Source: an archaeon (lineage in GTDB: Archaea > Micrarchaeota > Micrarchaeia > Norongarragalinales > UBA97). Taken from it: a stretch of 64,000 nucleotides of DNA. Location: contig JAGVFW010000013.1 of the NCBI GenBank assembly GCA_020057405.1, forward strand, positions 23,144-87,143, in the 5' to 3' direction. The notes beneath the pieces were generated by a model, which worked only from the letters and a program-made list of their open reading frames with translations, searched no databases and was not told the DNA's origin. Shown here one piece after another: positions 12,518 to 63,201 of the stretch; the stretch's first letter is position 1; each line of letters opens with the position of its first letter. The translations under genes and the position numbers were made by a program.

Positions 12518-12544
12518 CCTCATTTTGAAGTTTTTGGTGAAATA

Positions 12545-15165: not shown

Positions 15166-15224
15166 TTAAGAACCTAAAGATAGGTTAATAAATACTTAAA
15201 GATACAATAATCTGGGAAGCAGAA

Positions 15225-15476
15225 ATGGAAATAACTGGAATTAAGCTTTTTGACAAACCGAACATAGCGCTTACTTTCGTCTTTAATGGAAATCAGAGGC
15301 AGGAAGTAAGCTTTAACTTGCTTGGAATAATTCTCATCGCCCTAAGCTTGTTCATCCTGGTTTTTTCAGAGTCATTCCCTCAGCCGATACAGGGGTGGTT
15401 TCAAAGTCTGGGGGCGGCAATGCTGATAGCTGGAATCGTAATTTACGGACTAACTAAAAAACAAAAAGGCAAGTAA
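15225..15476 (+). CDS. small membrane protein (2 TM)
   Basis: Hydrophobic. Lies inside the element. Confidence 0.35.
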   Translation: MEITGIKLFDKPNIALTFVFNGNQRQEVSFNLLGIILIALSLFILVFSESFPQPIQGWFQSLGAAMLIAGIVIYGLTKKQKGK

Positions 15477-15478
15477 CC

Positions 15479-15715
15479 ATGTTGCAAGAGCTACTTCAAT
15501 CAAAAAATCCCCTGATAAAAATAGTGACGATAACCGCGATTGGTTTAGTCGTCTTCATAGTCTTCGGGATTCTCTCAATCATCCTCCTGCCCTGGATAGC
15601 CCAAAAGCAGGGAGCGACTCTTGGTCCTCAGGAGTGGCTTGCGTTCTACACTAACCTACTTGCCGGAATTGCCACCAGCATTACCATCGGTATACTGTTC
15701 TTTCTTCAAAAATAG
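15479..15715 (+). CDS. small membrane protein (2 TM)
   Basis: Hydrophobic. Lies inside the element and is adjacent to the previous ORF. Confidence 0.35.
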   Translation: MLQELLQSKNPLIKIVTITAIGLVVFIVFGILSIILLPWIAQKQGATLGPQEWLAFYTNLLAGIATSITIGILFFLQK

Positions 15716-15770
15716 TCAAATACCGTCGGCGTTCTATGCCTCCGGTTCTCCCCGTCTTTTGACTTTTGGG

Positions 15771-15791
15771 CAAATCACCCCTGCGGCATTC
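15771..15791 (+). repeat. attR (distal copy of the 21-bp core)
   Basis: Exact 21-nt match to the tRNA-Phe 3' end. Confidence 0.75.
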
Positions 15792-15881
15792 TAATACGAT
15801 AGCGTAATGCCTCCACGAGCTCTACAGCGGCAGCTCGTACGGATAAACCAATAAATACGGCTTTTCAAATAGCTTGATACG

Positions 15882-17360: not shown

Positions 17361-17574
17361 GCCGTTTAGCCTAGAACTAAATGAAACACGTCAATCAGAA
17401 TGCTAGTCTCACCGTGCTTTGGAAGTGCATCACTTGCTCCAACCAATGCATTCTGCTCGTTTCTCCCGGAATGAGGGCATCGTTATAGCGTAGTGTACCG
17501 CGCCCCTGCGGCACCCTAATTTTCTTAGACGTTTAAGCGCCTGCGAACGCGGGTTTAATAGGCGCGTCCGGCAC

Positions 17575-47494: not shown

Positions 47495-47809
47495 TCAGTG
47501 AACGCGCTTGATTTTGGGGAAGCGGTCGAAGCCTGAATCCGGGGTTCGGGACTTTTTGGACAATAAATCTGCCTTGCGAAGTTGTTTTTTCCTTAGGATA
47601 AGTTCAACCCATTCTTTGCATGAAGGGCAGAGGGTATGCATTTCAACCGTTTCTCCGCTCAGGGTGGAGTGCTTAGGGGAAAGCCGAGTCCACTCGTACG
47701 AGTCAAGACTGCATCCCATGTCTTTGGTCTGGAATCCGCCAATCTTCTTGCCACAATAAGGGCAGAAAAAATTTCCACGAATTGAATCGAACAGCCCCAC
47801 GTTAATCAC
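47495..47809 (-). CDS. zinc-ribbon protein (CPYC…CPSC)
   Basis: Two CxxC pairs. ORF only. Confidence 0.35.
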   Translation of the reverse strand: MINVGLFDSIRGNFFCPYCGKKIGGFQTKDMGCSLDSYEWTRLSPKHSTLSGETVEMHTLCPSCKEWVELILRKKQLRKADLLSKKSRTPDSGFDRFPKIKRVH

Positions 47810-47945: not shown

Positions 47946-48692
47946 ATGCCAGTAGAACGGGTCCAGAGCGGCATTTACGGCCTTGACGAGCTGATTACGG
48001 GAGGGTTCCCAAAGGGCCGCACCATCCTCATTAGCGGCGCGTGCGGCACGGGCAAGAGCATTTTGTGCAGCCAGTACCTCTACCGCGGGGCCGCCGAGTT
48101 CGACGAACCCGGAGTTTACGTCGCTTTTGACGAGCGGCCGGAAGAAATTAGGAGCGACATGGCGAACTTCGGCTGGGACATCGAAGCAATGGAAAAGAAA
48201 GGCAAGCTCGCGATTGTTGACGTTACTAGCGCCAAAGCCGGCGTGCCAAGCGAGGAAGACCACGCAATCCTCCCAGGCCAGCTTGACATTGACAAGATTC
48301 TCGTCGACGCGATTAGCGTGGCGCGCAACATTGGCGCGAAAAGAATGGTTTTCGACTCTATTCCCTCAATGGCCTTCCGCATGGACACCGTCCACGAAAT
48401 CCGCAAAGGCATCTTGAAGCTCGCCTACATTTCGGCCAAAGCCGGCTTGACGACGCTGATTACAACTGAAGCCGAGGAATCGCCTTCCGGCGTTCCAATC
48501 AAGTTTTCCCGCTACGAAGTCGAAGAATACGTTGCAGATGGCGTCGTCGTCCTAGGACTCTTCGGCGGCGGCCAAAGCGCCTTCCGCACACTCCACGTCC
48601 GCAAGATGCGAGGCACCAAACACGCCCTCGAACTCCACCCAATGGAAATAGGCGACAAGGGAATAACAGTCAAGAAGATAGGCGGAATTTAG
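47946..48692 (+). CDS. KaiC-like RecA-superfamily ATPase (single domain), copy 1
   Basis: …GIYGLDELITGGFPKGRTILISGACGTGKS… Walker A in a KaiC/RadA-like context. ~248 aa. Confidence 0.75.
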   Translation: MPVERVQSGIYGLDELITGGFPKGRTILISGACGTGKSILCSQYLYRGAAEFDEPGVYVAFDERPEEIRSDMANFGWDIEAMEKKGKLAIVDVTSAKAGVPSEEDHAILPGQLDIDKILVDAISVARNIGAKRMVFDSIPSMAFRMDTVHEIRKGILKLAYISAKAGLTTLITTEAEESPSGVPIKFSRYEVEEYVADGVVVLGLFGGGQSAFRTLHVRKMRGTKHALELHPMEIGDKGITVKKIGGI

Positions 48693-49225
48693 CTTCCACT
48701 GGTTTTTGGTTTCAAAATAAAAACACACTCTGCTTCCCCAGTACAAACACACTTGGTTTCTACGCATTCAATCTCTTTGTCATATATTGTCGTAAAAATA
48801 CCCGCAAAAAAACCCGCTATAAAATAATCCATAACTACCTTGGTCTTTTCGTTTTTTCGTAAATCATCTTTAGCTAATGAAGAAATTGCTCCGACGATTA
48901 TACTCCCATCTGGGTTTGAAGAAATTCGGTTTATTTTCGCAAGACCTTGTAACTCCACGATATTGCGCCATAACGCTACGCTCTCCATGCCCTTAACCTT
49001 AAAACGCTTATCTAAATCCTCGGAAAAATCCTTAGATGTCCTAAAACCCAAAGTGTACAGAAGTTTTCCAGATTTGGCACTGTTTCCTTCGTTAAGAAGA
49101 CTTCTCAAATGAGAGTGGATAGACGCAGGGTATAACAAATACGTAGAGTTGAAAATAGCCACATCGCCTTCAATAAAGCGCAATTGTTTTGCCATAAGCA
49201 ATTTTTTAAAAAAGCCGGATAACAA
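48689..49225 (-). CDS. V4R-domain (hydrocarbon/small-ligand binding, COG1719-like) protein
   Basis: C-terminal …ECVETKCVCTGEAECVFIL… is the V4R C-x-x-G…C-x-F pattern. The gene is AT-rich. Confidence 0.55.
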   Translation of the reverse strand: MLSGFFKKLLMAKQLRFIEGDVAIFNSTYLLYPASIHSHLRSLLNEGNSAKSGKLLYTLGFRTSKDFSEDLDKRFKVKGMESVALWRNIVELQGLAKINRISSNPDGSIIVGAISSLAKDDLRKNEKTKVVMDYFIAGFFAGIFTTIYDKEIECVETKCVCTGEAECVFILKPKTSGS

Positions 49226-49699
49226 CTAAGTCTCCCCACGTATTCGTTTTATTTTTTCCCACTTTTCAAAATTCAGTACTAAATCGGCTTCTTGGTCGCT
49301 AACAATCGTGCTAACCAAAACTTCTCGGATTTTGGGATTACGCACTAGTTTTGATATAGAAGCTGAAAGCGCTCGAGAAAACTTATCAGAACGCAATTTT
49401 GTAGTAAAATGCGCGGATATTGCTACTGGAACACCCGTCATAATCTCAATAAAGCCGCCTTTTTCGAAGAGAAACCGCTTGTAAAACTTTTCGCCAACGA
49501 TATCTTCACCAATGAAACAGGTTTTTTCTCCGAAGTTTCTCTCCAGTGACTTAACGAATTCAAACAAAGCACGATCAGTTTCAGATTCTGAATTTTGAGT
49601 CGCCAGCGCTACGAGATCCGCAGAGTCCGGCGTATCTGAACCAAAAGGTAGCGCTTCGGGAAGATCGATTAAAGTCACATACGAGTGTCTTAGTTTCAT
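49226..49699 (-). CDS. hypothetical protein (157 aa), co-oriented and contiguous with the V4R gene
   Basis: ORF only. AT-rich. Confidence 0.35.
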   Translation of the reverse strand: MKLRHSYVTLIDLPEALPFGSDTPDSADLVALATQNSESETDRALFEFVKSLERNFGEKTCFIGEDIVGEKFYKRFLFEKGGFIEIMTGVPVAISAHFTTKLRSDKFSRALSASISKLVRNPKIREVLVSTIVSDQEADLVLNFEKWEKIKRIRGET

Positions 49700-49872
49700 C
49701 CGGTACCTCCCACTAACACATTACGCATACTGTAACGCTATTTAAAAACACTAATCTACCCGCATCTCAAAAGACACAGCAGACTTAAAAAGAGACCTAG
49801 CCTACGGGTATATACGCTAAACGCAGGTAGAAGGAAAGAAACTAACCGATAGTAAAAAAACTGGGGTAGATT

Positions 49873-51171
49873 TTGTTGAAAAACTTGCAAGTTGGCATTG
49901 GCTTTTCGGAAGTAGCAGATTCAAAAAAGGCGGCTAAGGCGGCCTCTGAACAAGCGCTGAAAACACTTAAGAAAAAGCCAACAATCACCTACGTTTTCTT
50001 CGCAGGGGAATACGATCCTAAAGAAATAAGCAGGGGGTTAGTTGAAGCACTTGGCGATAGTGAATTTGTCGGGGGTTCCGGTGACGCGGTATTTTTTGAG
50101 GACAAGATATACCGGACCGGAATAGTGGTTGCGGCAATATACAGCGAATATCTCCACGTAGGAATCTCCTCAATCGAAGGAATATCAAAAGACCCCCACG
50201 GACTAGCTAGGAAAGTAACTGCAGAAGCAATGAAGAAAATTGCAATAGACAAGTATGTAGATCCATACTTACAGTTTACTAGAATGAGAAATAGCAGCAT
50301 AAAGTGGATGATTAAAAAACCATCATTCCACATTACAGTTTTTGCGAAAGGTATGAAATTGCCTCAGATGGGAGAAGAAACCAAAATATTACAAGGAATA
50401 ACTAGGGAAATGGGATTCAATGTTCCGATTTGGGGGGGCAGTTTCGGAGTACACCTCGAAAAGCTATTCGAACAAAAACCATACGACATTCACCTCTTAC
50501 ATTCAGGTAAAATACTCACAGACGGCTTAATCGTAGTAGTGAATTCAACAAGTCTACTCTACGGACTATCCTTAGCGCATGGTTCGCAACGGACAAACAA
50601 AATAGGCTTCATTTCTGGCGTTACGGGGGGCGGGTACGTGATAACGGGAATTTCCGGTAAAAACCCCATAGACTGGTATTGTGAAAACCTAAACATACCT
50701 CGAAAAGAGTTTTTAAAAAATTCCATAGTTATTACTCAGAAAAACCCATTAGGAATTCCTGACAACTATGGCGGATTTATTATTAGGGCGGGCGGAGTAC
50801 CCGCTGGAGAAAATCTAGCCTTTACTGCAACGTTCGAAGAAGGTTGGCCGGTATACATCATGGATTCGAGCATAAGCAATATGGCCACGGCACCGGGTAA
50901 AGTAATCGAAGACCTGCGTGCAAGTACCAACGAAGCAACTCCGGCTCTAGCTCTAGCAATCATCTGCGCATCATGCAGAATCGTCACAGGAGAAAAAGGC
51001 GTCGCCGGAGAACTCAAAGAATTAAAGAAAAAGCTCGGCGGGGCGCCAATCGTAGGTTTCTCGTCATTTACTGAAATTGGAGCTAAAGAGGGCGTACCCA
51101 CTACGGTACAGCACGAAGCTACAACCCTACTAACAATTTACGATAAATTGTTGCACGAAGTTAGGGATTGA
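49873..51171 (+). CDS. FIST-domain (FIST_N + FIST_C) putative small-ligand sensor protein
   Basis: N-terminal …PTITYVFFAGEYD… and C-terminal …PIVGFSSFTEIG… match the FIST N and C signatures. Confidence 0.6.
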   Translation: MLKNLQVGIGFSEVADSKKAAKAASEQALKTLKKKPTITYVFFAGEYDPKEISRGLVEALGDSEFVGGSGDAVFFEDKIYRTGIVVAAIYSEYLHVGISSIEGISKDPHGLARKVTAEAMKKIAIDKYVDPYLQFTRMRNSSIKWMIKKPSFHITVFAKGMKLPQMGEETKILQGITREMGFNVPIWGGSFGVHLEKLFEQKPYDIHLLHSGKILTDGLIVVVNSTSLLYGLSLAHGSQRTNKIGFISGVTGGGYVITGISGKNPIDWYCENLNIPRKEFLKNSIVITQKNPLGIPDNYGGFIIRAGGVPAGENLAFTATFEEGWPVYIMDSSISNMATAPGKVIEDLRASTNEATPALALAIICASCRIVTGEKGVAGELKELKKKLGGAPIVGFSSFTEIGAKEGVPTTVQHEATTLLTIYDKLLHEVRD

Positions 51172-51182
51172 GTTGAACCTGC

Positions 51183-52730
51183 GTGACACCTATTCGAAAC
51201 GCAACAATTTTAGTGCTGGGCGGAGCAGGACAAGTAGGCTTCGAATTTTGTTCACAAATCCTATCCAAAAATCCACTGAAGCTCATTATTTGCGATATAA
51301 ATGAGAAAAAAGTTAAGTCTGCCATTAGTAGATTAAATTCAAAAAGTCGTACGACCGCAAAAATCGGAGAATGGGGAGATATTTTTTCAGATAAACCGAC
51401 AGCGAAGTCTGCGCTCATTCAAATAAAAAGCAGCATTGTCGAACTGACGAACCGAACTGGCGTGCTGGCGGCTAGCGATGCCTCAGATACCTTCCTTTAC
51501 AAGCTGATATGCAAATACAAGCCCGACATCCTTGTTGATGCGGTCAATACAGCTACTGCACTGGCTTACAAAGATAGTCGCGAATCAAAAACGCGCGAAT
51601 CTACGCAACAAAACGACCTACCAGAACCGGTGCCGATTATGCAATTAATTCGACACACGCAAGTGTTGTTTCAGGCGTTCAGAAAAGCACAAACTAAGGA
51701 ATATATAAAAATAGGAACTGGCGGAACCGGCGGCCTTGGTTTCACTTTGCCATATACACACGGTGAAAATGAAGTTCCGTCAAAACTCCTAATGAGTAAA
51801 TCTGCCGTTGCAGGCGCGCAAACCATGCTTTTGTGGGTTTTGGCAAGAACTCCAATGATGCCAATAATAAAGGAAATTAAAGTTACGGCACTCATAGGAT
51901 GGAGAGAAATTGGGCGGGGTGAATTCACCATCGACTCCGAACCAATCGCACTCTATGATTGCCCAATTGAAAAGAGCCTAACTATCAGCGATGCGCTAAA
52001 AAAACACAATTCAATCAGATTAAATAAAAATCTACACGGGACGTGGATTGACACTGGAGAAAATGGAATATTTACTAAAGATATGTTCGCGGCTATTACT
52101 TCGAGAAACAACATGGAGCTAATTACTCCAGCAGAAATAGTCAAAATAATCATAGACGAAATTGAAGGCAAGCACACCGGGAAAGACACAATATCGGCCA
52201 TGGATAATGCAGTACTTGGCCCTACACTAATCGGAAGCGGAATGCGGCAAGTCGCTATAGATCGAATGAAGGATGACGACGAAGTTGTGGCAAGTATACC
52301 GACGCTAGGCCCCCTAACGGCAAAAATATTGTGGGAAGCCGCATTACTGAAAACCTCTTTCGAGAATATCGATCAAGTAATAAAAGAAAATGAAAAACAT
52401 ATATCGGAAAGGACTTTTGAAAAAATAAGCAGAGATCAAACGCTGAGAGCTAAAATAATATCCATAGGAATACCCATCCTCTTACCTTCTGGTAAGCTTC
52501 TTCGCGGTCCAACTATATCAATTCCAGATCAGAGTCGAGTATCCTCAAACCTGCGAGATGTCGAGACTTGGGCCGCCACTGGCTGGGTAGACCTTAGGCC
52601 TAAAAACTGGCTGCTTTGGAAAACCTGGCTCCGCGACTATCGCACATCTAATAACAATTCATTCAATATCGGCGAGATTTGCGGATGGATTTTTGCGCAT
52701 AAGCTTGGCGGAATGAGGATAAAACGGTGA
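51183..52730 (+). CDS. Rossmann-fold NAD(P)-binding oxidoreductase of uncertain family (515 aa)
   Basis: N-terminal ILVLGGAGQVGFEF…LIICDINEKK… (GxGxxG plus an acidic residue after β2) and …PDILVDAVN…. The remainder is unassigned. Confidence 0.5.
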   Translation: MTPIRNATILVLGGAGQVGFEFCSQILSKNPLKLIICDINEKKVKSAISRLNSKSRTTAKIGEWGDIFSDKPTAKSALIQIKSSIVELTNRTGVLAASDASDTFLYKLICKYKPDILVDAVNTATALAYKDSRESKTRESTQQNDLPEPVPIMQLIRHTQVLFQAFRKAQTKEYIKIGTGGTGGLGFTLPYTHGENEVPSKLLMSKSAVAGAQTMLLWVLARTPMMPIIKEIKVTALIGWREIGRGEFTIDSEPIALYDCPIEKSLTISDALKKHNSIRLNKNLHGTWIDTGENGIFTKDMFAAITSRNNMELITPAEIVKIIIDEIEGKHTGKDTISAMDNAVLGPTLIGSGMRQVAIDRMKDDDEVVASIPTLGPLTAKILWEAALLKTSFENIDQVIKENEKHISERTFEKISRDQTLRAKIISIGIPILLPSGKLLRGPTISIPDQSRVSSNLRDVETWAATGWVDLRPKNWLLWKTWLRDYRTSNNNSFNIGEICGWIFAHKLGGMRIKR

Positions 52731-53884
52731 TAACTAACTTCGAGGAGCTTTTAACAACATCCTCACGCACATTAGACCCGAAACAGATTTCACCAGCCGT
52801 ATGGGCTTCAAAAAATTGGGAAAAACTAGATAGGAAAAGTACTGAAACGACCCTTCTTCCGTTTATTAAGTTTCAAATTAATCGCGCTGGCAAAGCAATG
52901 CCAGATATTTACTCGCCATACACGAAAAAAAATACGCCAATAAACGAGTTTGAAGATTTTTTTAATTTACCTGCACTAGTAAAAGACACGGGAACCCACT
53001 CCATCGGATTTAGAGAAAAGGTCAAACTTAATCCGTATATACTATTACCAAAAGATACGAGTTCAGCTACGGTCGTCTATAAATCAGGCGGTACTCGGGG
53101 TACAGCCACTCCCACGTTTCTAACCACTTGGGATCACGAAGTTGAAGCGCTTTCCTTAAAAAAGTGCTTCGAGTATATGGGAATAAAGAAAGATGTGGTT
53201 GCGCTTAATTCTTACAATCCGACACATAAAGGCGGACAACTGATTACCAATGCACTCTTAGCTCTGGGCGTAAAAGTTATACCTAGGCGTACAACCGATA
53301 CGCCAACAGAAATGATTAACACGATAAAAACCTACGGCGTATCAATGTTAGCAACAGTACAAGGCCCACTTAGTGAAGATGATAATGTTCGAAAAGGCGC
53401 AGGGATAGATTTCCTATCACTTATTGAAGCGGGACAAGATGTACTCGAACAACACTTAGACTTGTTGTTCATTACCGGCTATTCGCTCATTCCGGAAGTT
53501 ATTGCTTGGTCAGAAAGTAATAAAAAAAACCTCGCTACGTGTTTAGGTTCTTCGGAAGCAATTCCCCAAGCAACTAGCACAGTAAAAGGTACAAAGTGCA
53601 AATACAACAACCTGCACCTGATTAACGGCCCCCACTACCTCGAAATCGTAAAGCTGGAATCTGGAACACTCGTTCCAGTAAAACGGGGAGAAACTGGCCT
53701 GCTACTATACACCACCATTGCAAGAGACGGTACGATATACATCCGATACGCTCCGGGTGACGCGGCAACACTAACGGCTTACGGTGGAGAATGCGACTGT
53801 GGAATACGTACACCCATCATTTCAAATATTCGAAGAATAGATATACCTGAAGATACTATTGCCGCCGGCTGTTGCATAGGGTAG
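52727..53884 (+). CDS. adenylate-forming acyl-protein synthetase-like enzyme (LuxE / PaaK / F390-synthetase superfamily)
   Basis: …VYKSGGTRGTATPTF… is P-loop-like [ST]SG[ST]xG. …YAPGDAATL… is present. The C-terminus ends …GCCIG, as with the LuxE acyl-Cys near its C-terminus. Confidence 0.5.
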   Translation: MITNFEELLTTSSRTLDPKQISPAVWASKNWEKLDRKSTETTLLPFIKFQINRAGKAMPDIYSPYTKKNTPINEFEDFFNLPALVKDTGTHSIGFREKVKLNPYILLPKDTSSATVVYKSGGTRGTATPTFLTTWDHEVEALSLKKCFEYMGIKKDVVALNSYNPTHKGGQLITNALLALGVKVIPRRTTDTPTEMINTIKTYGVSMLATVQGPLSEDDNVRKGAGIDFLSLIEAGQDVLEQHLDLLFITGYSLIPEVIAWSESNKKNLATCLGSSEAIPQATSTVKGTKCKYNNLHLINGPHYLEIVKLESGTLVPVKRGETGLLLYTTIARDGTIYIRYAPGDAATLTAYGGECDCGIRTPIISNIRRIDIPEDTIAAGCCIG

Positions 53885-55311
53885 AACAAATGACCCACCT
53901 AAAATTTAACAACTATATAGGCGGAAAGGAAGTTCTACTTTCAGGACAAACTTTTACAGTTGAAAGCAGCATATATCCCGACTATCAGTTTCTAGCTCCT
54001 GAAGCGGGACTATTTGATATTAAAACGGCAATTTCTAAGGCGCGTACATCTGTAAAAGACTGCCACGCACTTACCTTTAGCGAACGAATAGAAATACTTG
54101 AACGAGCGGCGGCTTCTTTTTCGCCAACTGCAACTGATTTCGAGTTCGCTGTCAAAACCACAGGCATGCCCATATCAAATGTTAGGTCTTTTTCAGAAGA
54201 TATTCGAAATATTTACCGCAATGTACCGATTGCTATAGAAAAGCACATAGGCCGGCTGGGCGACCGGTTCGGACATGACCTTAGACACTCAGAAGGCACC
54301 GTGCATTTTGAACCAATAAATGGAATAGTATATGCAATTACGCCAGGTAACGATATTCGCGTAACCGCATTCATTGCAAGTTGGCTAGTAGCCTTAGGAA
54401 TACCCGGAATATTTAAATGCTCAAAAAACGACCTCGCGTTTGCTAATAAAACTTTACAAAAGTTAGTCGAGGCGGGCTATCCGGAAGGCGGTCTTAACCT
54501 GCTTTGTTGGGATACACAAAAAAAGGAAAATGCTAAATTAAATTTCGAATTGGTAGATTCTTCGAAAGTTGTTTGGGCATATGGAGCCGATTCGACCGTT
54601 GATTTCATGCTTCGATTTGAAACAAAATCTGAAAACCAAGTTTTAGATCACTTTTCGGACAAAACCATACTAAGACATGCAACCGGAAGAACCGCAGCTA
54701 TATCCTCTCCGAAAACAGACATCGAAAAAGTATCTGAACGCGCGACTACCTCCGCTTTAACTTGGCCGATTGGTTGTAACTCGCTAAAAGCACTATTTAA
54801 CGCATCCAACAAAAACACCGAGGTTGTTAGCGCCCTAACGGAAAAGTTCGAGCAACTTGCTAAACATACCGGCGACCCCATGAAAAACACTACGAAGATA
54901 GGCTTCACGGAACCAAAACTACTAGCCCAGGTGTGGAACAGAATAAATGACCTCAAAAAAACCGGTCAGCTTAGCTTGCTTACTGGAGAAAAAATTAGTG
55001 AAAGACAATGCACGCCGCTACTCTTAGAAACTCTCGACCTTAATTCGGAATTCCTAAACACTGAATTTTCTACTTATCTACTAACTATCAAAAACTGCTC
55101 CGGGTTTAGTGAAGCGATAGATGAGGTCAATGTAACTTCAGGTGCGAATAGACGACTCGTAGTAACTGTTTTTTCTTCTGAAAATGAAAAACTCGGAAGA
55201 ATTCACGCGCACCGAATAAATATGAACACCATAACAACCGATCTCGACCTATTATTTCAAGAAGGAAACGACTACTTTAGCAAACTGACTACGCCCCAAC
55301 TTCATAAATGA
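53872..55311 (+). CDS. LuxC-like acyl-CoA/acyl-protein reductase (divergent ALDH superfamily)
   Basis: Segment-by-segment similarity to the LuxC pattern. AITPGNDIRVTAFIASWLVAL matches LLAGNVPLSGIMSILRAIL. GIFKCSKNDLAFAN matches CIIKTSSTDPFTAN. VVWAYGAD matches VIVAWGGPD. ERQC matches QRAC (catalytic Cys). Confidence 0.6.
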   Translation: MHRVEQMTHLKFNNYIGGKEVLLSGQTFTVESSIYPDYQFLAPEAGLFDIKTAISKARTSVKDCHALTFSERIEILERAAASFSPTATDFEFAVKTTGMPISNVRSFSEDIRNIYRNVPIAIEKHIGRLGDRFGHDLRHSEGTVHFEPINGIVYAITPGNDIRVTAFIASWLVALGIPGIFKCSKNDLAFANKTLQKLVEAGYPEGGLNLLCWDTQKKENAKLNFELVDSSKVVWAYGADSTVDFMLRFETKSENQVLDHFSDKTILRHATGRTAAISSPKTDIEKVSERATTSALTWPIGCNSLKALFNASNKNTEVVSALTEKFEQLAKHTGDPMKNTTKIGFTEPKLLAQVWNRINDLKKTGQLSLLTGEKISERQCTPLLLETLDLNSEFLNTEFSTYLLTIKNCSGFSEAIDEVNVTSGANRRLVVTVFSSENEKLGRIHAHRINMNTITTDLDLLFQEGNDYFSKLTTPQLHK

Positions 55312-55325
55312 ACGAATAGAACGCA

Positions 55326-56099
55326 TTAAAGCTTCAAAACGTCTTCATCGGAAACAAACTCGATTCCGCTCTTTGAAAATCTATACGATAACGCCTTCCG
55401 TTCATGATCAGTATACCTCATTTTTCTAACTTGCAAAGATCGAAATTCGGCAGTACCTATTCCAAAAAAACTCAGGAAAATTACACCATCGGCAAGAAAT
55501 TCTGAAATTCCGTCCGAACTCATACCTTTTCCTCGCTCTGGCAATTCTGAAGTGAGAAAAATTGTCGCACCCAACGCCCTTAGACTAGAAATAACCGTAG
55601 CTAACATTCGCTTAGTCATAGTTTTCTCCGAAGTACTCCTAGGTGGAATTTTATCTAAACTTCGTGAAGGCACCCCTCCGCGCTTAAGCAATACTTCCTT
55701 TGCAAAATCAGATACCAAGGCAAACTCAGAAAAAGTACTCATAGAGTCTAAAACCAGCCGTTGCGGAGAAAACTGACGAATCGCAGTGAAAATTTCGCTC
55801 AAAAAAGACTCGTCCTTTAATATATCTACATAAACTATTTTGAGCAAGTTTTTATCTACCCAAAGATTCAAATCCCACCCGTATTGGGCAGCTTGCTTAT
55901 TCAATTCTTCAAACGTCTGTTCGGTTGAAACGTACATACTTCGCTCATTATTTGCTATCCCCTGAAGTAAGAAATGCAAACATAAGGTACTCTTACCAGT
56001 TCCGGCCCCCCCCGAAATTAATACTACGTTCCCCTTAGGAATGCCCCCACTAATGGCCTCATCCAAGCCGATAATGCCAGTTTTAACTCTCTCAATCAT
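55326..56099 (-). CDS. KaiC-like RecA-superfamily ATPase (single domain), copy 2; ~35% identical to copy 1
   Basis: …GIIGLDEAISGGIPKGNVVLISGGAGTGKS… plus a Walker B-like VLDSMS. Confidence 0.75.
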   Translation of the reverse strand: MIERVKTGIIGLDEAISGGIPKGNVVLISGGAGTGKSTLCLHFLLQGIANNERSMYVSTEQTFEELNKQAAQYGWDLNLWVDKNLLKIVYVDILKDESFLSEIFTAIRQFSPQRLVLDSMSTFSEFALVSDFAKEVLLKRGGVPSRSLDKIPPRSTSEKTMTKRMLATVISSLRALGATIFLTSELPERGKGMSSDGISEFLADGVIFLSFFGIGTAEFRSLQVRKMRYTDHERKALSYRFSKSGIEFVSDEDVLKL

Positions 56100-56120
56100 C
56101 GAGATACTTAGGCTTGCCCA

Positions 56121-57011
56121 TTAAAAAAGCATATCGGATCGGGTAGCTTTACCCCGTTTGAATCCACCTTTAGTCGGGCCTACCTCAAACACGCATTTTT
56201 GGTCGCCTTTTGCTATGCACTTGGTTTCTTTTGCTTCGATTGCTGGGTCACCATACATTACGGCGAATCCTCCCGCTAGGCAGCCGCGCAGAAAATCGTC
56301 CACAGGCTCCTTGCTTTTTCCGAAACGATTAAGGTATTCGACTGCGAAGGGAGAATAATCTACTGTGACGAAAGCGGTTTTATTTGCCGTATCTATCTGC
56401 TCGATGTTTAGACTCCCCCAGCCGACTATTGAGAGCGTGTCAATGCCGTGCTGGAGTTCTACATCCAAGTCGCCACGGGTTACGCCCGTTCTACGCATTT
56501 CAGAATACCAACTGACGCTCATATCTCTTACCGTTTTGTAAAGAAGGCCGGGCTTCTTTTTGAGTTCAATGTGCCAAAGTAGGTACTGATACATCGGAAT
56601 CATGCAAATCTTGTGCCCAAATAAGTAAAGCTCATCCTTCGACAGGGTGAGATTTCCACTAAGCAAAAGATGTTTGAGCAGCGACAATGCCCTAAATGCA
56701 GAAAACATCCGGCCCTTGGCCGGAATGGCGAAAAAAGTTTTTGAATCGGAAGACGCCTGTATTGTCGAAATTTCTTGCGCCAAATTTCCCAACCAAACGC
56801 GATTAATAGAATAACCGGCATCATCTTTCACTAGCATTCCGGCGGCGGCCATTTCGCCGAGCGCCTTGTGTACGCCTTGGTAGGTAGCTTTGGTGCCTTC
56901 CTTTTGCACTGCCTTGAACGTTTCTTTTGCCGTTAGGGGCGCTTGCTCGGAGAGCGCGTTAAGCGTGGCGCCTTTCACACCGCCCAATGCAGAGCCTAGG
57001 ACTGAACTCAT
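56121..57011 (-). CDS. winged-helix plus V4R-domain putative ligand-responsive regulator (start moved to MSSVLGS…)
   Basis: The N-terminal wHTH (…PLTAKETFKAV…ATYQGVHKALGEM…GYSIN…) is shared with the three upstream paralogues. The C-terminus has …KCIAKGDQKCVFEV…, a V4R pattern. Confidence 0.55.
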   Translation of the reverse strand: MSSVLGSALGGVKGATLNALSEQAPLTAKETFKAVQKEGTKATYQGVHKALGEMAAAGMLVKDDAGYSINRVWLGNLAQEISTIQASSDSKTFFAIPAKGRMFSAFRALSLLKHLLLSGNLTLSKDELYLFGHKICMIPMYQYLLWHIELKKKPGLLYKTVRDMSVSWYSEMRRTGVTRGDLDVELQHGIDTLSIVGWGSLNIEQIDTANKTAFVTVDYSPFAVEYLNRFGKSKEPVDDFLRGCLAGGFAVMYGDPAIEAKETKCIAKGDQKCVFEVGPTKGGFKRGKATRSDMLF

Positions 57012-57835
57012 TTTCTCCCTCCGCACAGTGCAATCGTTTCTTTCTTTAGTTGGTCGGCGAGGGCTTGGTTGCGGATGACTGCAACTGGCACTCGCGCCTT
57101 TTTCATGAAAACCGCCTCGTAGAAGCTGTCGACATCGAAGTCGCTCATTTTGGAGGCGGAGTTGTAGACTTTGTCGAGTGCTTTCTTGAACTCGAGCGGG
57201 TAGTAGACGCGCACAACGAAGTCCTTGTAGACGACGGTATCCGTGCTCGTCGCTTCCTTCACGCCAATCCGGTGCTTCAGCTTGGAGTTCTTGCGCCAGT
57301 AGTCCGCGCACCAGCGGTCAAGCGGCGTGTCGGCAGGCGTTATCGAGTAGCTGTCGGACACGCTTACCAGCTCCTTCATGCGCAAGTAAGTCTCGCGGTT
57401 GAGGAACAGGGGAACCCAGAAGTGGCACCACTGCAGCGCCAGTACCTTGTCCTTTGGGTCAAAAACCTTCTGCGCGAAAGAGACAAGGAAATCGTCAACC
57501 TCGGCAACAGAATCAAAAAAAAGCACCGACTGGCCGGCGGGCATGCTTAAACCGGTCTTCGAATAGGAAGACTTGAGCTCGTCAGAAAACCGTGAGAGTC
57601 CATCAATCCAATCAAAGGAAAGAGAGTAACCCTCTGGAGAACGGGAAATCACGCCCTCCAAAGAAAGCTCGCCTAAAGACTTGTGGATTGCCTGATAAGT
57701 AAGGTGCGTTCCGTTCTTCGCAATTGCGGAATGGATTTGCTTGGCAGAGAGCGGCCACTTGGCAGAGAGAACACTGATAATCGCGCTTTTCGCGTCCGCT
57801 TTTCCTCGACTGCCTAGAGTAGGTAATTCAATCAT
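57008..57835 (-). CDS. winged-helix regulator-family paralogue 2, unknown C-terminal domain (start moved to MIELPTLG…)
   Basis: wHTH …PLSAKQIHSAIAKNGTHLTYQAIHKSLGEL…GYSLS…. C-terminal …DFVVRVYYPLEFKK…RVPVAVIRNQALADQL…. Confidence 0.5.
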   Translation of the reverse strand: MIELPTLGSRGKADAKSAIISVLSAKWPLSAKQIHSAIAKNGTHLTYQAIHKSLGELSLEGVISRSPEGYSLSFDWIDGLSRFSDELKSSYSKTGLSMPAGQSVLFFDSVAEVDDFLVSFAQKVFDPKDKVLALQWCHFWVPLFLNRETYLRMKELVSVSDSYSITPADTPLDRWCADYWRKNSKLKHRIGVKEATSTDTVVYKDFVVRVYYPLEFKKALDKVYNSASKMSDFDVDSFYEAVFMKKARVPVAVIRNQALADQLKKETIALCGGRK

Positions 57836-58683
57836 TTCCTTCCCCTCCTGAACTCGGCGAGCGTTTCGTCGATGATTTGTTTTGCCATTGCCTTGTTGCG
57901 GGTGATGACTACTGGGACTTTCATGCGGGCGCCGATTCCGACGAGCACGTAGTCGTAGACGACACGCATTACGCTGGCCGCTGACTGGGACGAGAAAGTC
58001 AGGTGCATGAACTTTTTGAATGCGGGGGGCCAGTAGATGTTGATTACGTAGTCGTTGAAGGCGAGCACGTCGCACGCTTCGGCAACGTCAACACCGGCAA
58101 GCCATTTGAGGGCTATTGGACCCTCCAAGTACTTCAGGCAGTAAATGTCCCCAGGTGAGTTGCCTCGGCAGAGAGCGTAATTGCCCTTGCTTTTCTTGAA
58201 TCTGGCCATTTTCTTGTATTGCTCCTCGCCAACCATTTGCGCCGCCCAAGCGAACCCGCAGTGCTGCACAATCACGCTCTTGCCTGCGGCGATTGGAGGC
58301 ATCTCATCAATGACCCAATAGGGGGCGGAGATTATGCCCGTAAAAGTGTAGGAAACCGAAGAGTTGGGAGGAATTTCCAAGAGACGAGGAGGCTCTCCGC
58401 CCGAATATCGCTTGCTAGCGTCATTCCACCAAGCTTTCTGCGCTTCGACCCACCCTGGCGAAAGCGAATATCCTTCCGGCAAGCGCGAGATAACGCCATC
58501 GGCCGACAACTCGCCCAAGACCTTGTGCACCGCTTGGTAAGTAAGTGGCTTGCCGCCGTCCTTTGAAACTACAGCGTGCAACTGCTTTGCAAACAAGGGC
58601 CATTTGACTGCTAGCGCGTTGATCACGCGCGAGCGGGCGTCATGCCTGCCGCTTGCGAGCAGTCCCGCGTTAAGTTCAGCCAC
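57832..58683 (-). CDS. winged-helix regulator-family paralogue 3
   Basis: Same wHTH (…PLFAKQLHAVVSKDGGKPLTYQAVHKVLGEL…) and the same C-terminal motifs (…DYVINIYWPPAFKK…KVPVVITRNKAMAKQI…). Confidence 0.5.
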   Translation of the reverse strand: MAELNAGLLASGRHDARSRVINALAVKWPLFAKQLHAVVSKDGGKPLTYQAVHKVLGELSADGVISRLPEGYSLSPGWVEAQKAWWNDASKRYSGGEPPRLLEIPPNSSVSYTFTGIISAPYWVIDEMPPIAAGKSVIVQHCGFAWAAQMVGEEQYKKMARFKKSKGNYALCRGNSPGDIYCLKYLEGPIALKWLAGVDVAEACDVLAFNDYVINIYWPPAFKKFMHLTFSSQSAASVMRVVYDYVLVGIGARMKVPVVITRNKAMAKQIIDETLAEFRRGRK

Positions 58684-59578
58684 TGCGCTTGCCTCCGGTT
58701 TTGAAGTGCGTTGCCAGCTTCCTTCTCATTTCTCTTGCAAGCGCGGCGTTTCGGGTGATGACTAGCTTGATTTTGAATTTCTTTTGGAAGCAAATCTTGT
58801 AGAGGGAATTGAGGTCCATGATTTTTTTTATCATGTTCTTACTGAACCACGCCATTACTTCGGGGGGCGTGTAAATCTGGACGATAAAATCGCCGAAAAC
58901 CACGGAGTCTACCTTGTTTGCAGGGTCGGTGCCCATAACGTAGGGCGTGCCGAAACCACGCTTCCAAAACTCTAGAGTGAACCTATCGAGAAAGAAGTTC
59001 GTCGTGCACACGAGCCTTGTGCGGGCCGAGGAAGTAAGCTGCCTGATTTCATCATACTCTTTCTTGCTAACAATAAAGACCGGCCAGGCGCCGTACATCA
59101 CGATGAAAACATCGCCCTCGACCCTGTGCTTGAGAGTATACTCCGCCATCTCGGAAAGAACCCAGTAAAAGGGCGCGGCCAGACTCTCGTTAAACTCCAC
59201 AGTTGTGCTGGAATCAGGCGCAATGTCGGCAAACGAAATGCGGTCAGGCGAGACGTGACGCACTTCCGCCTCCTGCAAAAACTTCTTAGAACGCGAAATC
59301 CAGTCAAGAGACAAACGATAATTGCTAGAAAAATTGCGCTCAAGCACGCCCTCAGAAGCAAGGCGCCGAACCACCTTGTGGACGGCCTGGTAAGTCAACT
59401 GCTTGCCGCCGTCAGATAAAAGAAGCGAGTGAACATGCTTTGCGGACAACGGGGACTTTCTAGCCAGTGCCGAGATTACACGCGAGCGGGCGTCACGGCG
59501 CCCCGACGCTAGGACACTTTCCGAAAGCCCCCGATCTAAGTTGCCAACCAAACCCCAAACCACCACTCCGCAGGACAC
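58676..59578 (-). CDS. winged-helix regulator-family paralogue 4
   Basis: …PLSAKHVHSLLLSDGGKQLTYQAVHKVVRRL…, …DFIVQIYTPPEV…, …KLVITRNAALAREM…. Confidence 0.5.
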   Translation of the reverse strand: MSCGVVVWGLVGNLDRGLSESVLASGRRDARSRVISALARKSPLSAKHVHSLLLSDGGKQLTYQAVHKVVRRLASEGVLERNFSSNYRLSLDWISRSKKFLQEAEVRHVSPDRISFADIAPDSSTTVEFNESLAAPFYWVLSEMAEYTLKHRVEGDVFIVMYGAWPVFIVSKKEYDEIRQLTSSARTRLVCTTNFFLDRFTLEFWKRGFGTPYVMGTDPANKVDSVVFGDFIVQIYTPPEVMAWFSKNMIKKIMDLNSLYKICFQKKFKIKLVITRNAALAREMRRKLATHFKTGGKRSG

Positions 59579-60803: not shown

Positions 60804-61664
60804 ATGGGGCAGGTGGTTGGAATGGGTTTGCTTGGAAAACTTTTGGGCGGAGAAAAGCCTATGCCCAAGAAGAGCGGGGGGCACGGCAGCCACTGGCAAA
60901 CGCTTTTCCCCCAGTTGGACGACGTGTTTGTAAAAGCGCTCGTGGCCGGAGCGGAGTCAAGTAAGGTAGAATTAAGCCGCAAGGGCACGTTTGCAGGAAT
61001 GCGGGACACTACGCTGGCGTACGCGGTGTTTGGAGAGAAACTTGCGTTCGTTTACGCGCTTTTCTTAAAAGAAGTCGAACGCGATGGAAAGAAGCTGAAA
61101 GGCCTGATTGTTGACGAACCGTTCACCGCATACCCCGCTTACTTTGCCGCAAAGCCACATAACGGCACGATCAAGGCGGTTGAGGAATGGGCAAACGGGA
61201 CCGAAGCGCAGGTGCAAGTCAAGCTCGACGCTGGACCTGCTTTGTGGTTTTTCGCGACCGACTACTTGGAGAAGAAGGAAAAGTACGCAGTTGGAAGCAA
61301 GGCGGCACCCAAACTCGCGGGTTTTGCATATCGGCTGAACAAATTAGGCGACGAAAAACGCGAAGTCACGCTTCCTGACGGGAGCAAGGCGTCAATGGAC
61401 AACTTCGCGGGCATTATCCCCATGCAGATGACGCACAAGGCTGGCGATGTCGACGATTATGCCGTGTGGGCGAAGGTAGAGCGGCTTTCGCAAGAGAAAA
61501 CGCCAGTTAGCGCGAAAGTCGTCGAGGCGATTGTGGCGTACGGAGGCGAAAACCACAAGACAGCCATATCGATTCCCATCGTGACCACGGAAAAAACACT
61601 TCCCGATGCAGTCAAGCCCGGCGAGAAAATCACGGGAACGATTTGGTTAACTGGATCGCTTTGA
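60804..61664 (+). CDS. hypothetical protein (286 aa)
   Basis: ORF only. Confidence 0.35.
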   Translation: MGQVVGMGLLGKLLGGEKPMPKKSGGHGSHWQTLFPQLDDVFVKALVAGAESSKVELSRKGTFAGMRDTTLAYAVFGEKLAFVYALFLKEVERDGKKLKGLIVDEPFTAYPAYFAAKPHNGTIKAVEEWANGTEAQVQVKLDAGPALWFFATDYLEKKEKYAVGSKAAPKLAGFAYRLNKLGDEKREVTLPDGSKASMDNFAGIIPMQMTHKAGDVDDYAVWAKVERLSQEKTPVSAKVVEAIVAYGGENHKTAISIPIVTTEKTLPDAVKPGEKITGTIWLTGSL

Positions 61665-61667
61665 GAC

Positions 61668-61699
61668 AATCAACTTTTAGTTGATTGTGGTTCTACCCA
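61668..61699 (+). promoter_or_regulatory. conserved upstream motif, copy 2 (perfect CAATCAAC-TTTTA-GTTGATTG palindrome, then TG-GTTCTACC)
   Basis: 8-bp inverted repeat with a 5-nt spacer, ~45 nt upstream of the radical-SAM GTG start. Confidence 0.5.
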
Positions 61700-61732
61700 A
61701 CAAATAAGATTCTGCAAAAATAAAACAAGTTA

Positions 61733-62635
61733 GTGAACATCGAAGTTGTTGATTGGAAGATTATTGGAACCTGCAATTTGCGTTGTTTGCACTGCTACGG
61801 CCCGCCCAAAACGGATACGGCCCTCCCATTAGAGAAATTACTAGCAATCATCGACAAGTTCAAACTTCTTAAAATAAAATGGGTGGTGCTAACTGGAGGT
61901 GAACCCTTGCTCGTACAGAATATAGAAACAGTATTCCGTCACTTAAATCAGCACAACATCAAAATCGCTTTATCGACTAACACCACCTACTTCAGAAAAT
62001 TTCAACCATCCATTGAAAAGTACGTTTCGTCACTGAATATTCCGATTGACGGTTCCACACCAGAAATTCACGCTAAATCACGTAAAGACACGGCGTCATA
62101 TCATTCAGCAGCCGATGTCCTTAAGTTCTACCTTGAAAATCCGGAAAATAAACCCGAACTACTTCGAGTGGGGACTGTTTTCTCGAAAGCTAACCAAGGA
62201 GATTTCATCAACATTGCAAGGCTGCTTGAACCCTACGAATCAATCATAAGCACGTGGAAGATCTACGAATTAATGAACTCCGACACGCACCTTGATCTCA
62301 GAGCGCCGATTCTCCACGAACACGCTAATTTTGAACTGGAAATGGAGGAACTACACTCTACGGGCTTGCTTTCATCGAAAATATTGGTTTCCCGCGCTAG
62401 CTCGAGAAATAAGGCCTACTTTATGCTTAATCCCCAAGGGCAAGTCGTAGTTCCGACAAACCTAGATGGCATCTCCACGGACATGCCTGCCGGAGACTTC
62501 TTATGGACTCCAACGGACAAGTTGTTGGCACGCTGGCAAACAATGGTTTCCACAGAAAACTATAACTCAAACCACACTCGCCACTATGGCAAGATTAAGC
62601 TAACTCCGATTATGCTTGAGATGAAAGCGCGATGA
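61733..62635 (+). CDS. radical SAM protein (GTG start)
   Basis: CNLRCLHCY (C-x3-C-x2-C) and VVLTGGEPLL SAM-binding motif. No SPASM extension. AT-rich. Confidence 0.75.
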   Translation: MNIEVVDWKIIGTCNLRCLHCYGPPKTDTALPLEKLLAIIDKFKLLKIKWVVLTGGEPLLVQNIETVFRHLNQHNIKIALSTNTTYFRKFQPSIEKYVSSLNIPIDGSTPEIHAKSRKDTASYHSAADVLKFYLENPENKPELLRVGTVFSKANQGDFINIARLLEPYESIISTWKIYELMNSDTHLDLRAPILHEHANFELEMEELHSTGLLSSKILVSRASSRNKAYFMLNPQGQVVVPTNLDGISTDMPAGDFLWTPTDKLLARWQTMVSTENYNSNHTRHYGKIKLTPIMLEMKAR

Positions 62636-63201
62636 CTGGGGAACTGATGGACGTAGTCAACCACGCAAATGCCGTTATTGGAAGCGCGACAGTAAGCGAA
62701 GTGTATGAGCGTAAATTATCGCACCGGATAGTACATGTTTTTGTCCTCAACCAAAATGGCGAAGTATACCTGCAACAGCGGGCCCTAACTGACTCATTTC
62801 TTCCAGGGTACTGGTGCACCTCTGCAGGAGGGCACGTAAGAAAAGGAGAATCGTACGAAGATGCAGCGCGCAGAGAACTTGAAGAAGAGCTTGGCCTCAA
62901 AGATGCACCACTCGCCCCGCTAGGCAGCACTTTTCAATTCCAGCCCGACGAACACCAACGCCACCTGCAAGTCTTTGTCGCGTTCTCACCAAAAAGTCCG
63001 GCCCCAAACAAAGCCGAGGTGCATAAGGGTAAATTTTTTGACCTAGGGGAAGCGATACGAAAAGTCAAGTCAAACAAGCAAATTCATCCTCAACTTCAGC
63101 CCTGCTTGGCTCTGCTTTATGAAAACAGGGAAAGGCTTAAGGAAAGTCTGATCTTCTCTCCGAAAACCGAGCGGGAGCTATCGGCGAAATCCTCAAAATA
63201 G
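62632..63201 (+). CDS. NUDIX hydrolase (IDI/YfcD-like)
   Basis: Nudix box GGHVRKGESYEDAARRELEEELGL. ATGA overlap with the radical-SAM gene. Confidence 0.7.
   Translation: MTGELMDVVNHANAVIGSATVSEVYERKLSHRIVHVFVLNQNGEVYLQQRALTDSFLPGYWCTSAGGHVRKGESYEDAARRELEEELGLKDAPLAPLGSTFQFQPDEHQRHLQVFVAFSPKSPAPNKAEVHKGKFFDLGEAIRKVKSNKQIHPQLQPCLALLYENRERLKESLIFSPKTERELSAKSSK

Follow-up and report, generated by a model that had tools for sequence, protein, structure and literature searches.

The stretch of DNA analysed here (the window) comprises 64,000 nucleotides of the archaeal contig JAGVFW010000013.1. At 48,693-56,100 it contains an AT-rich block that had been described in an initial annotation as a self-contained island, delimited by two KaiC-like ATPase genes and encoding V4R and FIST sensor domains together with an operon of three enzymes. 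All open reading frames (ORFs) were found where that annotation had placed them. Its list of block genes (V4R, FIST and the three enzymes) stood, except that a conserved gene for a 157-amino-acid protein (p157, 49226-49699) had been overlooked. Gene content and order mark the block as a rearranged copy of a cassette that is conserved among uncultivated archaea, most of them labelled DPANN. The features of the locus are as follows.

47946-48692, plus strand: KaiC-A, single-domain KaiC-like ATPase (Pfam KaiC, 1.3e-67)
48689-49225, minus strand: stand-alone V4R protein, 178 aa (Pfam V4R, 4.5e-10; 39.9 bits, cut-off 31)
49226-49699, minus strand: p157, conserved protein of 157 aa with no Pfam domain
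49700-49872, no strand: divergent intergenic region between p157 and FIST, with AT-rich TATA-like stretches
49873-51171, plus strand: stand-alone FIST protein (FIST_N, 1.9e-17; FIST_C, 3.1e-12), first gene of the enzyme operon
51183-52730, plus strand: Rossmann protein, an NAD(P) oxidoreductase of the short-chain dehydrogenase/reductase (SDR) fold; precomputed Pfam label PF27054
52727-53884, plus strand: ligase, putative LuxE-like acyl-protein synthetase with a PaaK-type adenylation domain, 385 aa
53872-55311, plus strand: aldehyde dehydrogenase (ALDH)-like protein, putative LuxC-like acyl-thioester reductase (Aldedh, 4.7e-18)
55326-56099, minus strand: KaiC-B, second single-domain KaiC-like ATPase (Pfam KaiC, 2.2e-48)
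56121-57020, minus strand: probable winged-helix plus V4R one-component regulator (V4R, 3.7e-7; 30.6 bits, cut-off 31)
57008-58075, 57832-58683 and 58676-59578, minus strand: three tandem paralogues with a probable winged-helix N-terminal domain, host-like GC

The order in the window is KaiC-A> <V4R <p157, followed across the divergent intergenic region by FIST> Rossmann> ligase> ALDH> <KaiC-B. The Rossmann and ligase genes overlap by 4 nt and the ligase and ALDH-like genes by 13 nt; these overlaps indicate an operon, as had been proposed. The probable true start of the ALDH-like gene is an ATG at 53890. The intergenic region 49700-49872 contains ATTTAAAAAC, CTTAAAAAG and GTATATAC and is presumed to be the site of both promoters, one on the p157 side and one on the FIST side. 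The flanking genes encode GGGP synthase, deoxyhypusine synthase (DHS), an RPA-like OB-fold protein and RNA cyclase, which identifies the host as an archaeon.

In hidden Markov model (HMM) searches, the assignments of both KaiC copies, V4R and FIST were above the Pfam thresholds. Against Pfam KaiC (PF06745, cut-off 26.6), KaiC-A scored 228 bits and KaiC-B 165 bits; GTGKS and hhhhD motifs could be read in both sequences, with GACGTGKS as the Walker A of KaiC-A. The identity between the two proteins, put at about 35% before, was 35.3% over 255 aa. Circadian KaiC (TIGR02655/PRK09302) was excluded: KaiC-A and KaiC-B are single-domain proteins of 248 and 257 aa and scored 195 and 119 bits, respectively, with that model, versus a cut-off of 408. 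The FIST protein exceeded both of its cut-offs, with 64.2 versus 23.2 bits for FIST_N (PF08495) and 47.2 versus 28.5 bits for FIST_C (PF10442).

Relatives of the cassette were gathered first from the Rossmann protein and then from an alignment of p157. The contig scan covered 185,579 species representatives, and gene order was read from profile-HMM maps of 20 loci (numbered below with the prefix L). In the scan with the Rossmann alignment, 79 of 80 loci represented a bacterial paralogue family and one was archaeal. Altogether, about 17 distinct loci other than the window were found to link the same genes; they come from metagenomes of groundwater and sediment and from metagenome-assembled genomes. 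Co-localisation outside the window is thereby confirmed. The source names of these relatives are almost always those of DPANN archaea: L001 is from Candidatus Norongarragalinales, and other members of the p157 family are labelled Micrarchaeota, Aenigmarchaeota, Woesearchaeota and, in one case, Hydrothermarchaeota.

The canonical order in the relatives is (KaiC>) small winged-helix> FIST> LuxE> LuxC> [accessory enzyme] p157> V4R> <KaiC. V4R is followed by a convergent KaiC gene (sometimes two) or by a gene for a winged-helix-FIST fusion. FIST, LuxE and LuxC were seen wherever at least 1.5 kb of upstream sequence was available, the LuxE-LuxC pairing is conserved in every locus with enough sequence, p157 lies just upstream of V4R in all 16 readable loci, and a KaiC gene lies within the cluster in 12 loci. 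The Rossmann protein occupies the accessory slot in the window; elsewhere this slot is filled by an ApbA/KPR reductase (L086 and L088) or by a class IV or class III aminotransferase. L085 shares the synteny of the left flank of the window, namely RPA and AAA_17 and then FIST. L105, whose DHS is 89% identical, has only DHS-OrnDC in common with the window and could not reveal an empty site. DHS itself is too conserved to place the host, its DPANN and Methanosarcinaceae matches all being about 77-81% identical.

Broken genes were seen in some of the relatives. On the 123-kb contig of L104, the p157 homologue is split into two overlapping ORF pieces (9,992-10,443), and V4R, LuxE and LuxC were not detected near it; this locus may be a decayed remnant of the cassette. 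The ApbA/ketopantoate-reductase-like gene is intact (404 aa) in L086 and L087 but split into two ORFs in the near-identical contigs L088 and L089 (8,765-9,989), with different split points, perhaps because the accessory enzyme is decaying or because the sequence contains an error.

Comparison of the loci showed that the FIST-LuxE-LuxC trio exists in three sequence types and that all three genes change type together. Type 1 is present in the window, L001, L085, L090 and L092, type 2 in L086 and L088, and type 3 in L094, L098 and L102, which have bona fide Pfam LuxE and LuxC at the same positions (up to 2e-38 and 1e-74, respectively). The trio, with its enzymes, is called the module hereafter, and KaiC, V4R, p157 and the small winged-helix protein are called the frame. 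Between L001 and L092, the frame proteins KaiC, small winged-helix and V4R are 92%, 93% and 89% identical, whereas FIST, LuxE and LuxC are 58%, 50-52% and 51% identical. Between L001 and L088, identities are 69-83% in the frame versus 30-32% for FIST, 22-23% for LuxE and 20-23% for LuxC. The window compared with L001 showed the reverse pattern, with 34-54% in the frame and 76%, 62% and 56% for FIST, LuxE and LuxC.

GC content at third codon positions (GC3) follows the same division. It drops in FIST and the enzymes (0.24-0.53) in L001, L086, L088 and L092, that is, in every related genome checked. KaiC and the gene for the small winged-helix protein stay at host level (0.50-0.63), as do p157 and V4R in three of these four loci. 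In L086, for example, FIST has a GC3 of 0.24 and the enzymes about 0.31-0.35, versus 0.52-0.63 for the frame genes (KaiC, small winged helix, V4R and p157). Since genomes with frame genes 70-93% identical all show the pattern, a single recent insertion does not account for it. The data read as repeated horizontal replacement of the FIST-enzyme module inside a vertically inherited frame; by these measures the frame genes track the host lineages and only the module behaves as a transferable unit. In the genome of the window, V4R, p157 and KaiC-B also appear to belong to the imported stretch. Alternatively, the low GC of the block could be a locally maintained AT bias, such as that of weakly expressed accessory genes, but such a bias leaves the incongruent identities of module and frame unexplained.

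The two KaiC genes of the window differ in their relation to the cassette. KaiC-A is 51-57% identical to the KaiC adjoining the cassette in L001, L086, L088 and L092 and has a host-like GC3 of 0.69. KaiC-B, with a GC3 of 0.38, shares 28-30% identity with the cluster KaiCs and 28-34% with those of type-3 loci; its identity to KaiC-A is 35%. On these identities, KaiC-A is the orthologue of the cassette KaiC of the relatives and KaiC-B is not. The stop codon of KaiC-A overlaps that of V4R by 4 nt in a convergent junction, and the V4R and KaiC ORFs likewise abut or overlap convergently in L095, L097, L098 and L099. Being orthologous and keeping this junction, KaiC-A belongs to the system despite lying outside the low-GC block. 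The earlier picture of an island simply delimited by two KaiC genes needs changing: one of the genes lies outside the block and the other inside it, and the outer one is part of the cassette. In other genomes, the cassette KaiC was seen directly beside SbcC/SbcD-like genes (left flanks of L001, L088 and L092) or beside an AbiEi/AbiEii toxin-antitoxin pair (L086, 1,237-3,197).

The AT-rich character of the block was confirmed. Of all 7.4-kb stretches in the 64 kb, the one beginning at 48,701 has the lowest GC (0.420). Within 48,693-56,100, one-kb windows have a GC of 0.39-0.445, versus 0.553 ± 0.029 across 47 one-kb windows outside this and a second low-GC area (see below). On the left, the block ends abruptly near 48,690, at the stop codon of KaiC-A; on the right, GC recovers gradually between 56,000 and 56,800. 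Codon usage also differs from that of the flanks: GC3 is 0.36-0.41 in the eight block genes (V4R through KaiC-B) versus 0.63-0.75 in the flanking genes, while GC2 and amino-acid composition are nearly equal. The compositional shift sits at the codon level, and amino-acid composition was ruled out as the source of the low GC since GC3 is shifted but GC2 is not.

The idea of a self-contained mobile island was not borne out. A Pfam search found no integrase among the block genes, there is no tRNA near the block, and a search for flanking repeats and attachment sites around it gave nothing convincing; the block thus lacks the marks of an integrative genomic island (integrase or recombinase, tRNA or att site, flanking direct repeats). 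The sole repeat pair spanning it (D7; 84% identity over 19 nt) has its copies within KaiC-A and the winged-helix-V4R gene rather than at the edges. A single recent insertion of an island bounded by the KaiC genes was ruled out on two counts, the orthology of KaiC-A to the cassette KaiC and the recurrence of the module-versus-frame pattern in other genomes.

Other compositional features of the window were also recorded. A second low-GC stretch at 10,378-17,400 (about 0.42-0.48) begins directly after tRNA-Phe (10378-10451) and opens with a tyrosine integrase (11007-12155, minus strand), behind which lie genes for a CDC48_N-domain protein, a Schlafen/AlbA_2-HATPase_c_4 protein and a NosD/beta-helix protein. 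It resembles a typical element integrated at a tRNA gene; the block at 48,693-56,100, in contrast, has neither tRNA nor integrase. A GC dip (0.42-0.47) at 61,500-63,200 corresponds to overlapping genes for a radical-SAM protein (61733-62635) and a NUDIX hydrolase (62632-63201). Between DHS and KaiC-A, a 104-aa ORF (47,495-47,809, minus strand) contains two CxxC pairs; all its zinc-ribbon matches are sub-threshold, and the local GC falls to 0.46.

Among the small proteins of the cassette, the V4R protein (PF02830) has E156, C159 and C167 invariant in four orthologues; the V4R Cys cluster has been described (PMC5847659). p157 gave no Pfam or NCBIfam match, and its family is rare (about 130 clusters among 5.8 billion). 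p157 serves as a marker of the cassette. FIST is the most conserved protein of the module, being 76-77% identical to its counterparts in L001 and L085. With the NosP equivalog model, the window FIST scored 25 bits against a cut-off of 450 and is therefore not NosP; no histidine kinase was found in the locus.

FIST and V4R each also occur fused to a probable winged-helix domain in or beside the cassette. In the window, the gene at 56121-57020, with an intermediate GC3 of 0.51, encodes such a V4R fusion; its N-terminal domain aligns with a family whose profile matches the winged helix of Hop2 (4e-4) and, weakly, FUR. Four tandem paralogues at 56,121-59,578 (minus strand) share this probable winged-helix domain of about 90 aa, with the conserved motifs WPLSAK...TYQ(A/G)(V/I)HK. 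A recognisable C-terminal domain (V4R) is present only in the first of them; the others match nothing in Pfam there. The N-termini of the three further paralogues are 29-41% identical to those of the winged-helix-FIST proteins flanking the cassette in L086, L088, L090 and L092, and their Pfam winged-helix matches are only sub-threshold. The fusions of FIST and V4R to winged-helix domains support a ligand-sensing role for both in these lineages.

The ligase carries the P-loop SGGTRG and the PaaK CxCG motif and ends about 25 residues after the latter. Its profile aligns to residues 8-332 of 436 of PaaK (4r1l) and to residues 30-366 of 373 of LuxE; because the PaaK alignment stops at 332, the C-terminal subdomain of ANL enzymes is absent. 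R370 and G381-C382 are invariant in nine of nine orthologues and analogues, and the tail ends in AAGCCIG. Relatives were searched among 1.84 billion representatives. A Gly-Cys tail terminates 43 of the 61 best relatives, and with only 21 representatives at E<=1e-30, the type-1 ligase family is rare. LuxE likewise lacks the C-terminal subdomain and has a tail of about 20 residues (TRxxKGCxLS), in which Cys364 carries the acyl group into LuxC and Arg355 is essential (PMC9157457, PMC12041015). The architecture that defines LuxE, with no ANL subdomain and a conserved Arg followed by a Gly-Cys tail, is that of the window ligase. A profile of mixed types matched LuxE chain 7xc6_E in PDB at 2.6e-21, and the positional equivalents in L098 and L102 match Pfam LuxE at 2e-38 and 2e-31. 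Type-3 ligases also possess the GGWK loop.

The ALDH-like protein scored 21.1 bits with Pfam LuxC (PF05893, cut-off 21) versus 65.4 bits with the generic Aldedh model. When aligned to P5CDH 3rjl, C302, invariant in nine of nine sequences, corresponds to the catalytic Cys and N160 to the Asn, and an invariant His269 replaces the Glu of EMGGK. As in LuxC, the active-site Cys is kept and the general-base Glu is lost; LuxC keeps only the Cys (PMC12041015), whereas the window protein also retains Asn160. A review describes loss of the general-base Glu in reductive and thioester-handling ALDH branches and, for gamma-glutamyl-phosphate reductases (reductive ALDH18) in particular, a Glu-to-His swap (PMC12041015). 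The mixed profile has LuxC 7xc6_A as its best PDB match (1.2e-34), and the positional equivalents in type-3 loci match Pfam LuxC at 4e-37, 1e-50 and 1e-74.

The proposal of an adenylating enzyme beside a thioester-reductase-type ALDH is supported by these results. As to the names LuxE and LuxC, at the level of sequence the window ligase is not a member of the LuxE family and the ALDH-like protein, borderline with the LuxC model, is probably not a member of the LuxC family, whereas architecture and position (with true LuxE and LuxC in sister loci) liken the two to LuxE and LuxC. Based on architecture and position, the pair probably works like LuxE/LuxC, converting an acid via acyl-AMP and an acyl-S-enzyme to an aldehyde.

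The Rossmann protein consists of an SDR fold and a large C-terminal domain without a close structural match; its SDR part resembles 3-ketodihydrosphingosine reductase among many other ketoreductases. PF27054 is named Beta_methylindole_red_C, presumably after an origin in beta-methylindolepyruvate reductase. A large bacterial branch of PF27054 (about 561-569 aa, 33-40% identical to the window protein) was found in Gemmatimonadota, Acidobacteriota, Ignavibacteria and others (L002-L004 and most of L006-L084). In the three bacterial loci inspected, the gene lies with a GT2/Glyco_transf_21 glycosyltransferase gene and a cation-efflux gene, without a ligase or ALDH.

The analysis establishes the domain identities, the catalytic residues and architecture of the proteins, the conserved synteny, and that FIST co-varies with the enzyme pair. 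On this basis we propose the following scheme, of which the reactions and their reductive direction, the binding of ligands and every connection to KaiC are predictions. The PaaK-derived LuxE-like enzyme would adenylate a small carboxylic acid and shift the acyl group onto its own Cys382, which lies on the tail of about 20 residues that stands in for the ANL C-terminal subdomain. The tail would then hand the thioester to Cys302 of the LuxC-like reductase of ALDH fold, and reduction with NAD(P)H would yield an aldehyde. The accessory enzyme would work on a carbonyl, either before these steps (on a 2-oxo acid) or after them (converting the aldehyde to an alcohol or amine). FIST and/or V4R would bind the substrate or product and modulate the ATPase activity or autophosphorylation of KaiC and thereby transcription, the signalling frame being composed of V4R, p157, the KaiC-like ATPase and winged-helix proteins. 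NosP, the sole characterised stand-alone FIST protein, binds the adjoining kinase and tunes its autophosphorylation (PMC12570481). The cassette as a whole would combine an acid-reductase enzyme operon with a KaiC signalling frame, in a rearranged form in the window; we give this account an even chance of being right. That a metabolite is both made and sensed by the cassette, as the initial annotation supposed, is an inference.

Several observations weigh against this scheme. For the enzymes, the ligase has no Pfam LuxE (PF04443) match at E<=0.01 and only 0.0065 for AMP-binding; a profile of type-1 ligases alone matched PaaK in PDB at 1.4e-12 and no LuxE chain at E<=0.1; and the GGWK loop with the essential Lys238 of LuxE is absent from type-1 ligases, including that of the window (FITGY, no Lys). 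The type-1 ALDH profile has P5C dehydrogenase rather than LuxC as its best PDB match (8e-11). For the signalling part, KaiC is tied to the cassette by gene neighbourhood alone. The FIST profile detected no solved relative by sequence, the p157 profile gave no PDB match and no informative fold match, and the small winged-helix gene of about 90 aa, present in most relatives, is missing from the window. V4R, p157 and KaiC do not co-vary with the type of module, and for V4R this disfavours a role as a product-specific receptor.

The main alternative is an ordinary substrate-inducible operon, in which FIST, V4R, the winged-helix proteins and KaiC are local regulators that sense an external or host acid for its salvage, detoxification or assimilation, without any self-made signal. 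It differs from the preferred account chiefly in whether the cassette makes the molecule that is sensed, and we hold it to be possible, if somewhat unlikely. V4R is the effector-binding module of the phenol-responsive regulators PoxR and MopR (PMC5847659), the winged-helix-FIST and winged-helix-V4R fusions resemble one-component regulators, and frame genes that do not vary with the module are what generic regulators would show. Accessory aminotransferases and 2-oxo-acid or ketone reductases would also suit the salvage of amino acids or oxo acids needed by reduced DPANN symbionts. However, a stand-alone FIST gene presumably co-transcribed with the enzymes and varying in type with them would be unusual for a mere repressor or activator, V4R and p157 are without a DNA-binding domain, and simple induction needs no KaiC ATPase.

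A further reading, which we regard as doubtful, is that DPANN archaea use the cassette as a system, based on KaiC, for chemical communication or for sensing their host. The module would make an aldehyde (or an alcohol or amine) and carry FIST as its matched sensor, the polymorphic module would be exchanged like a bacterial pherotype, and the V4R-p157-KaiC core would turn the input into an ATPase or phosphorylation output and so into transcription. We know of no archaeal KaiC-like ATPase with a defined input; if this communication reading is true, the cassette would be the first archaeal KaiC hub to have one, and would represent a new class of signal in episymbiotic archaea.

It is unlikely that the cassette is a lipid or envelope pathway, in which the LuxE/LuxC pair would produce a fatty or isoprenoid-type aldehyde, and from it an alcohol or amine for the membrane or surface, with V4R as a carrier of hydrophobic intermediates. 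Canonical LuxCE reduces myristic acid (PMC12041015, PMC9157457), but the window enzymes are PaaK-like and P5CDH-like and not of fatty-acid type. Homologues of LuxC/LuxE reportedly figure in work on the flagellin glycosylation clusters of Aeromonas (PMC7874193), which would favour the pathway. The Rossmann SDR part has its likeness to 3-ketodihydrosphingosine reductase (one among many ketoreductases), and the bacterial PF27054 homologues adjoin a GT2/Glyco_transf_21 glycosyltransferase; the archaeal cassettes, however, lack genes for a glycosyltransferase, a thioesterase, an acyl carrier protein or any membrane protein. Loci for surface structures typically have swappable low-GC cassettes set in a conserved frame, which counts for such a pathway, but here regulatory genes outnumber enzymes.

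Still less probable, and in our view very unlikely, is an anti-virus or conflict system, with a variable, exchanged effector module in a conserved sensing frame and triggering via the KaiC/RecA-like ATPase. The low GC3 of the module and its replacement between close relatives would fit, as would the AbiEi/AbiEii pair beside the cassette in L086 and SbcCD in L001, L088 and L092. KaiC-B has weak PADLOC matches (mad8, 1.7e-6; AbiO, 2e-4), but these are confined to the P-loop region, and the other nine of the ten proteins match no PADLOC model. No nuclease, protease, TIR/Sir2 or membrane effector is encoded, and a search for cassette relatives on viral contigs and plasmids found none. Finally, chance juxtaposition on a foreign fragment or an assembly chimera, at which the sharp GC break at 48,690 might hint, can be dismissed as extremely improbable, as linkage of these genes is repeated in about 17 further distinct loci of differing sample and lineage, the 4- and 13-nt overlaps indicate an operon, L085 shares the left-flank synteny (RPA, AAA_17, then FIST), and all ORFs of the window are full length relative to their orthologues.

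Each domain family of the cassette is already known, as are KaiC hubs with sensor partners. What appears to be new is the conserved seven-gene cassette, the p157 family, the PaaK-derived lineage of LuxE type and the swappable FIST-enzyme module. The claim that no system with this gene set has been described held for the literature searched, in which the combination was not found; the 2017 survey of KaiC hubs lies outside that scope, and a prior listing there is possible. The cassette, in which two soluble enzymes of predictable chemistry are conserved together with three small proteins of sensor type and with one KaiC-like ATPase or two, is a compact, testable case that may connect a metabolite to archaeal signalling. 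The reduced genomes of DPANN archaea hold few regulatory or metabolic systems, and a cassette that is retained and repeatedly exchanged in them is likely to matter for symbiosis. In addition, the swinging-Cys-arm mechanism of LuxE would be extended to a PaaK-derived lineage outside bioluminescence, and p157 would constitute a new protein family with V4R as its obligate partner.

The closest known system for the enzymes is LuxC-LuxE, the fatty acid reductase of luminous bacteria (PDB 7XC6). As in the cassette, an adenylating enzyme without the ANL subdomain, with a short tail bearing Arg and Gly-Cys, is encoded next to a partner of ALDH fold that has a nucleophilic Cys and no general-base Glu. 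Unlike LuxC-LuxE, the window enzymes have PaaK and P5CDH as their best solved relatives and lack the Lys238 GGWK loop, the cassette has no LuxD thioesterase or luciferase, and its substrate is probably not myristate. Moreover, the lux operon is not linked to FIST, V4R, p157 or KaiC, whereas the cassette pair is.

For the frame, archaeal KaiC-like ATPases have been proposed as signal-transduction hubs (Makarova, Galperin and Koonin 2017, as cited in PMC5847659 and PMC6393860). As far as these citations describe them, such hubs resemble the cassette in having single-domain KaiC-like ATPases beside small sensor-type proteins and putative transcription factors; the cassette differs from the hubs so described in that its KaiC frame is firmly associated with an enzyme operon and with p157, for which there is no Pfam model. 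NosP-NosK shares with the cassette a stand-alone FIST_N+FIST_C protein encoded beside an autophosphorylating ATPase or kinase. In the cassette, however, the partner would be a KaiC-like ATPase and not a histidine kinase, and FIST is presumably co-transcribed with the enzymes.

For the accessory slot, the indolmycin pathway may be compared, in which Ind2, an NADH-using ketone reductase, turns a 2-oxo acid into a 2-hydroxy acid before ATP activation, its step being followed by that of Ind3, an ATP-dependent coupling enzyme. In the chuangxinmycin pathway, a KPR/ApbA homologue has been proposed as the functional equivalent of Ind2, and ApbA fills the accessory slot in L086 and L088. Unlike the indolmycin cluster, the cassette is without methyltransferase and arginine-tailoring genes and stands in an archaeal signalling context, not in an antibiotic cluster. 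With respect to exchange, the agr and comQXP pherotypes are polymorphic loci comprising a signal and its receptor. By analogy only, the cassette resembles them in that synthesis enzymes and a sensor-type protein appear to be replaced as a unit within conserved regulatory flanks.

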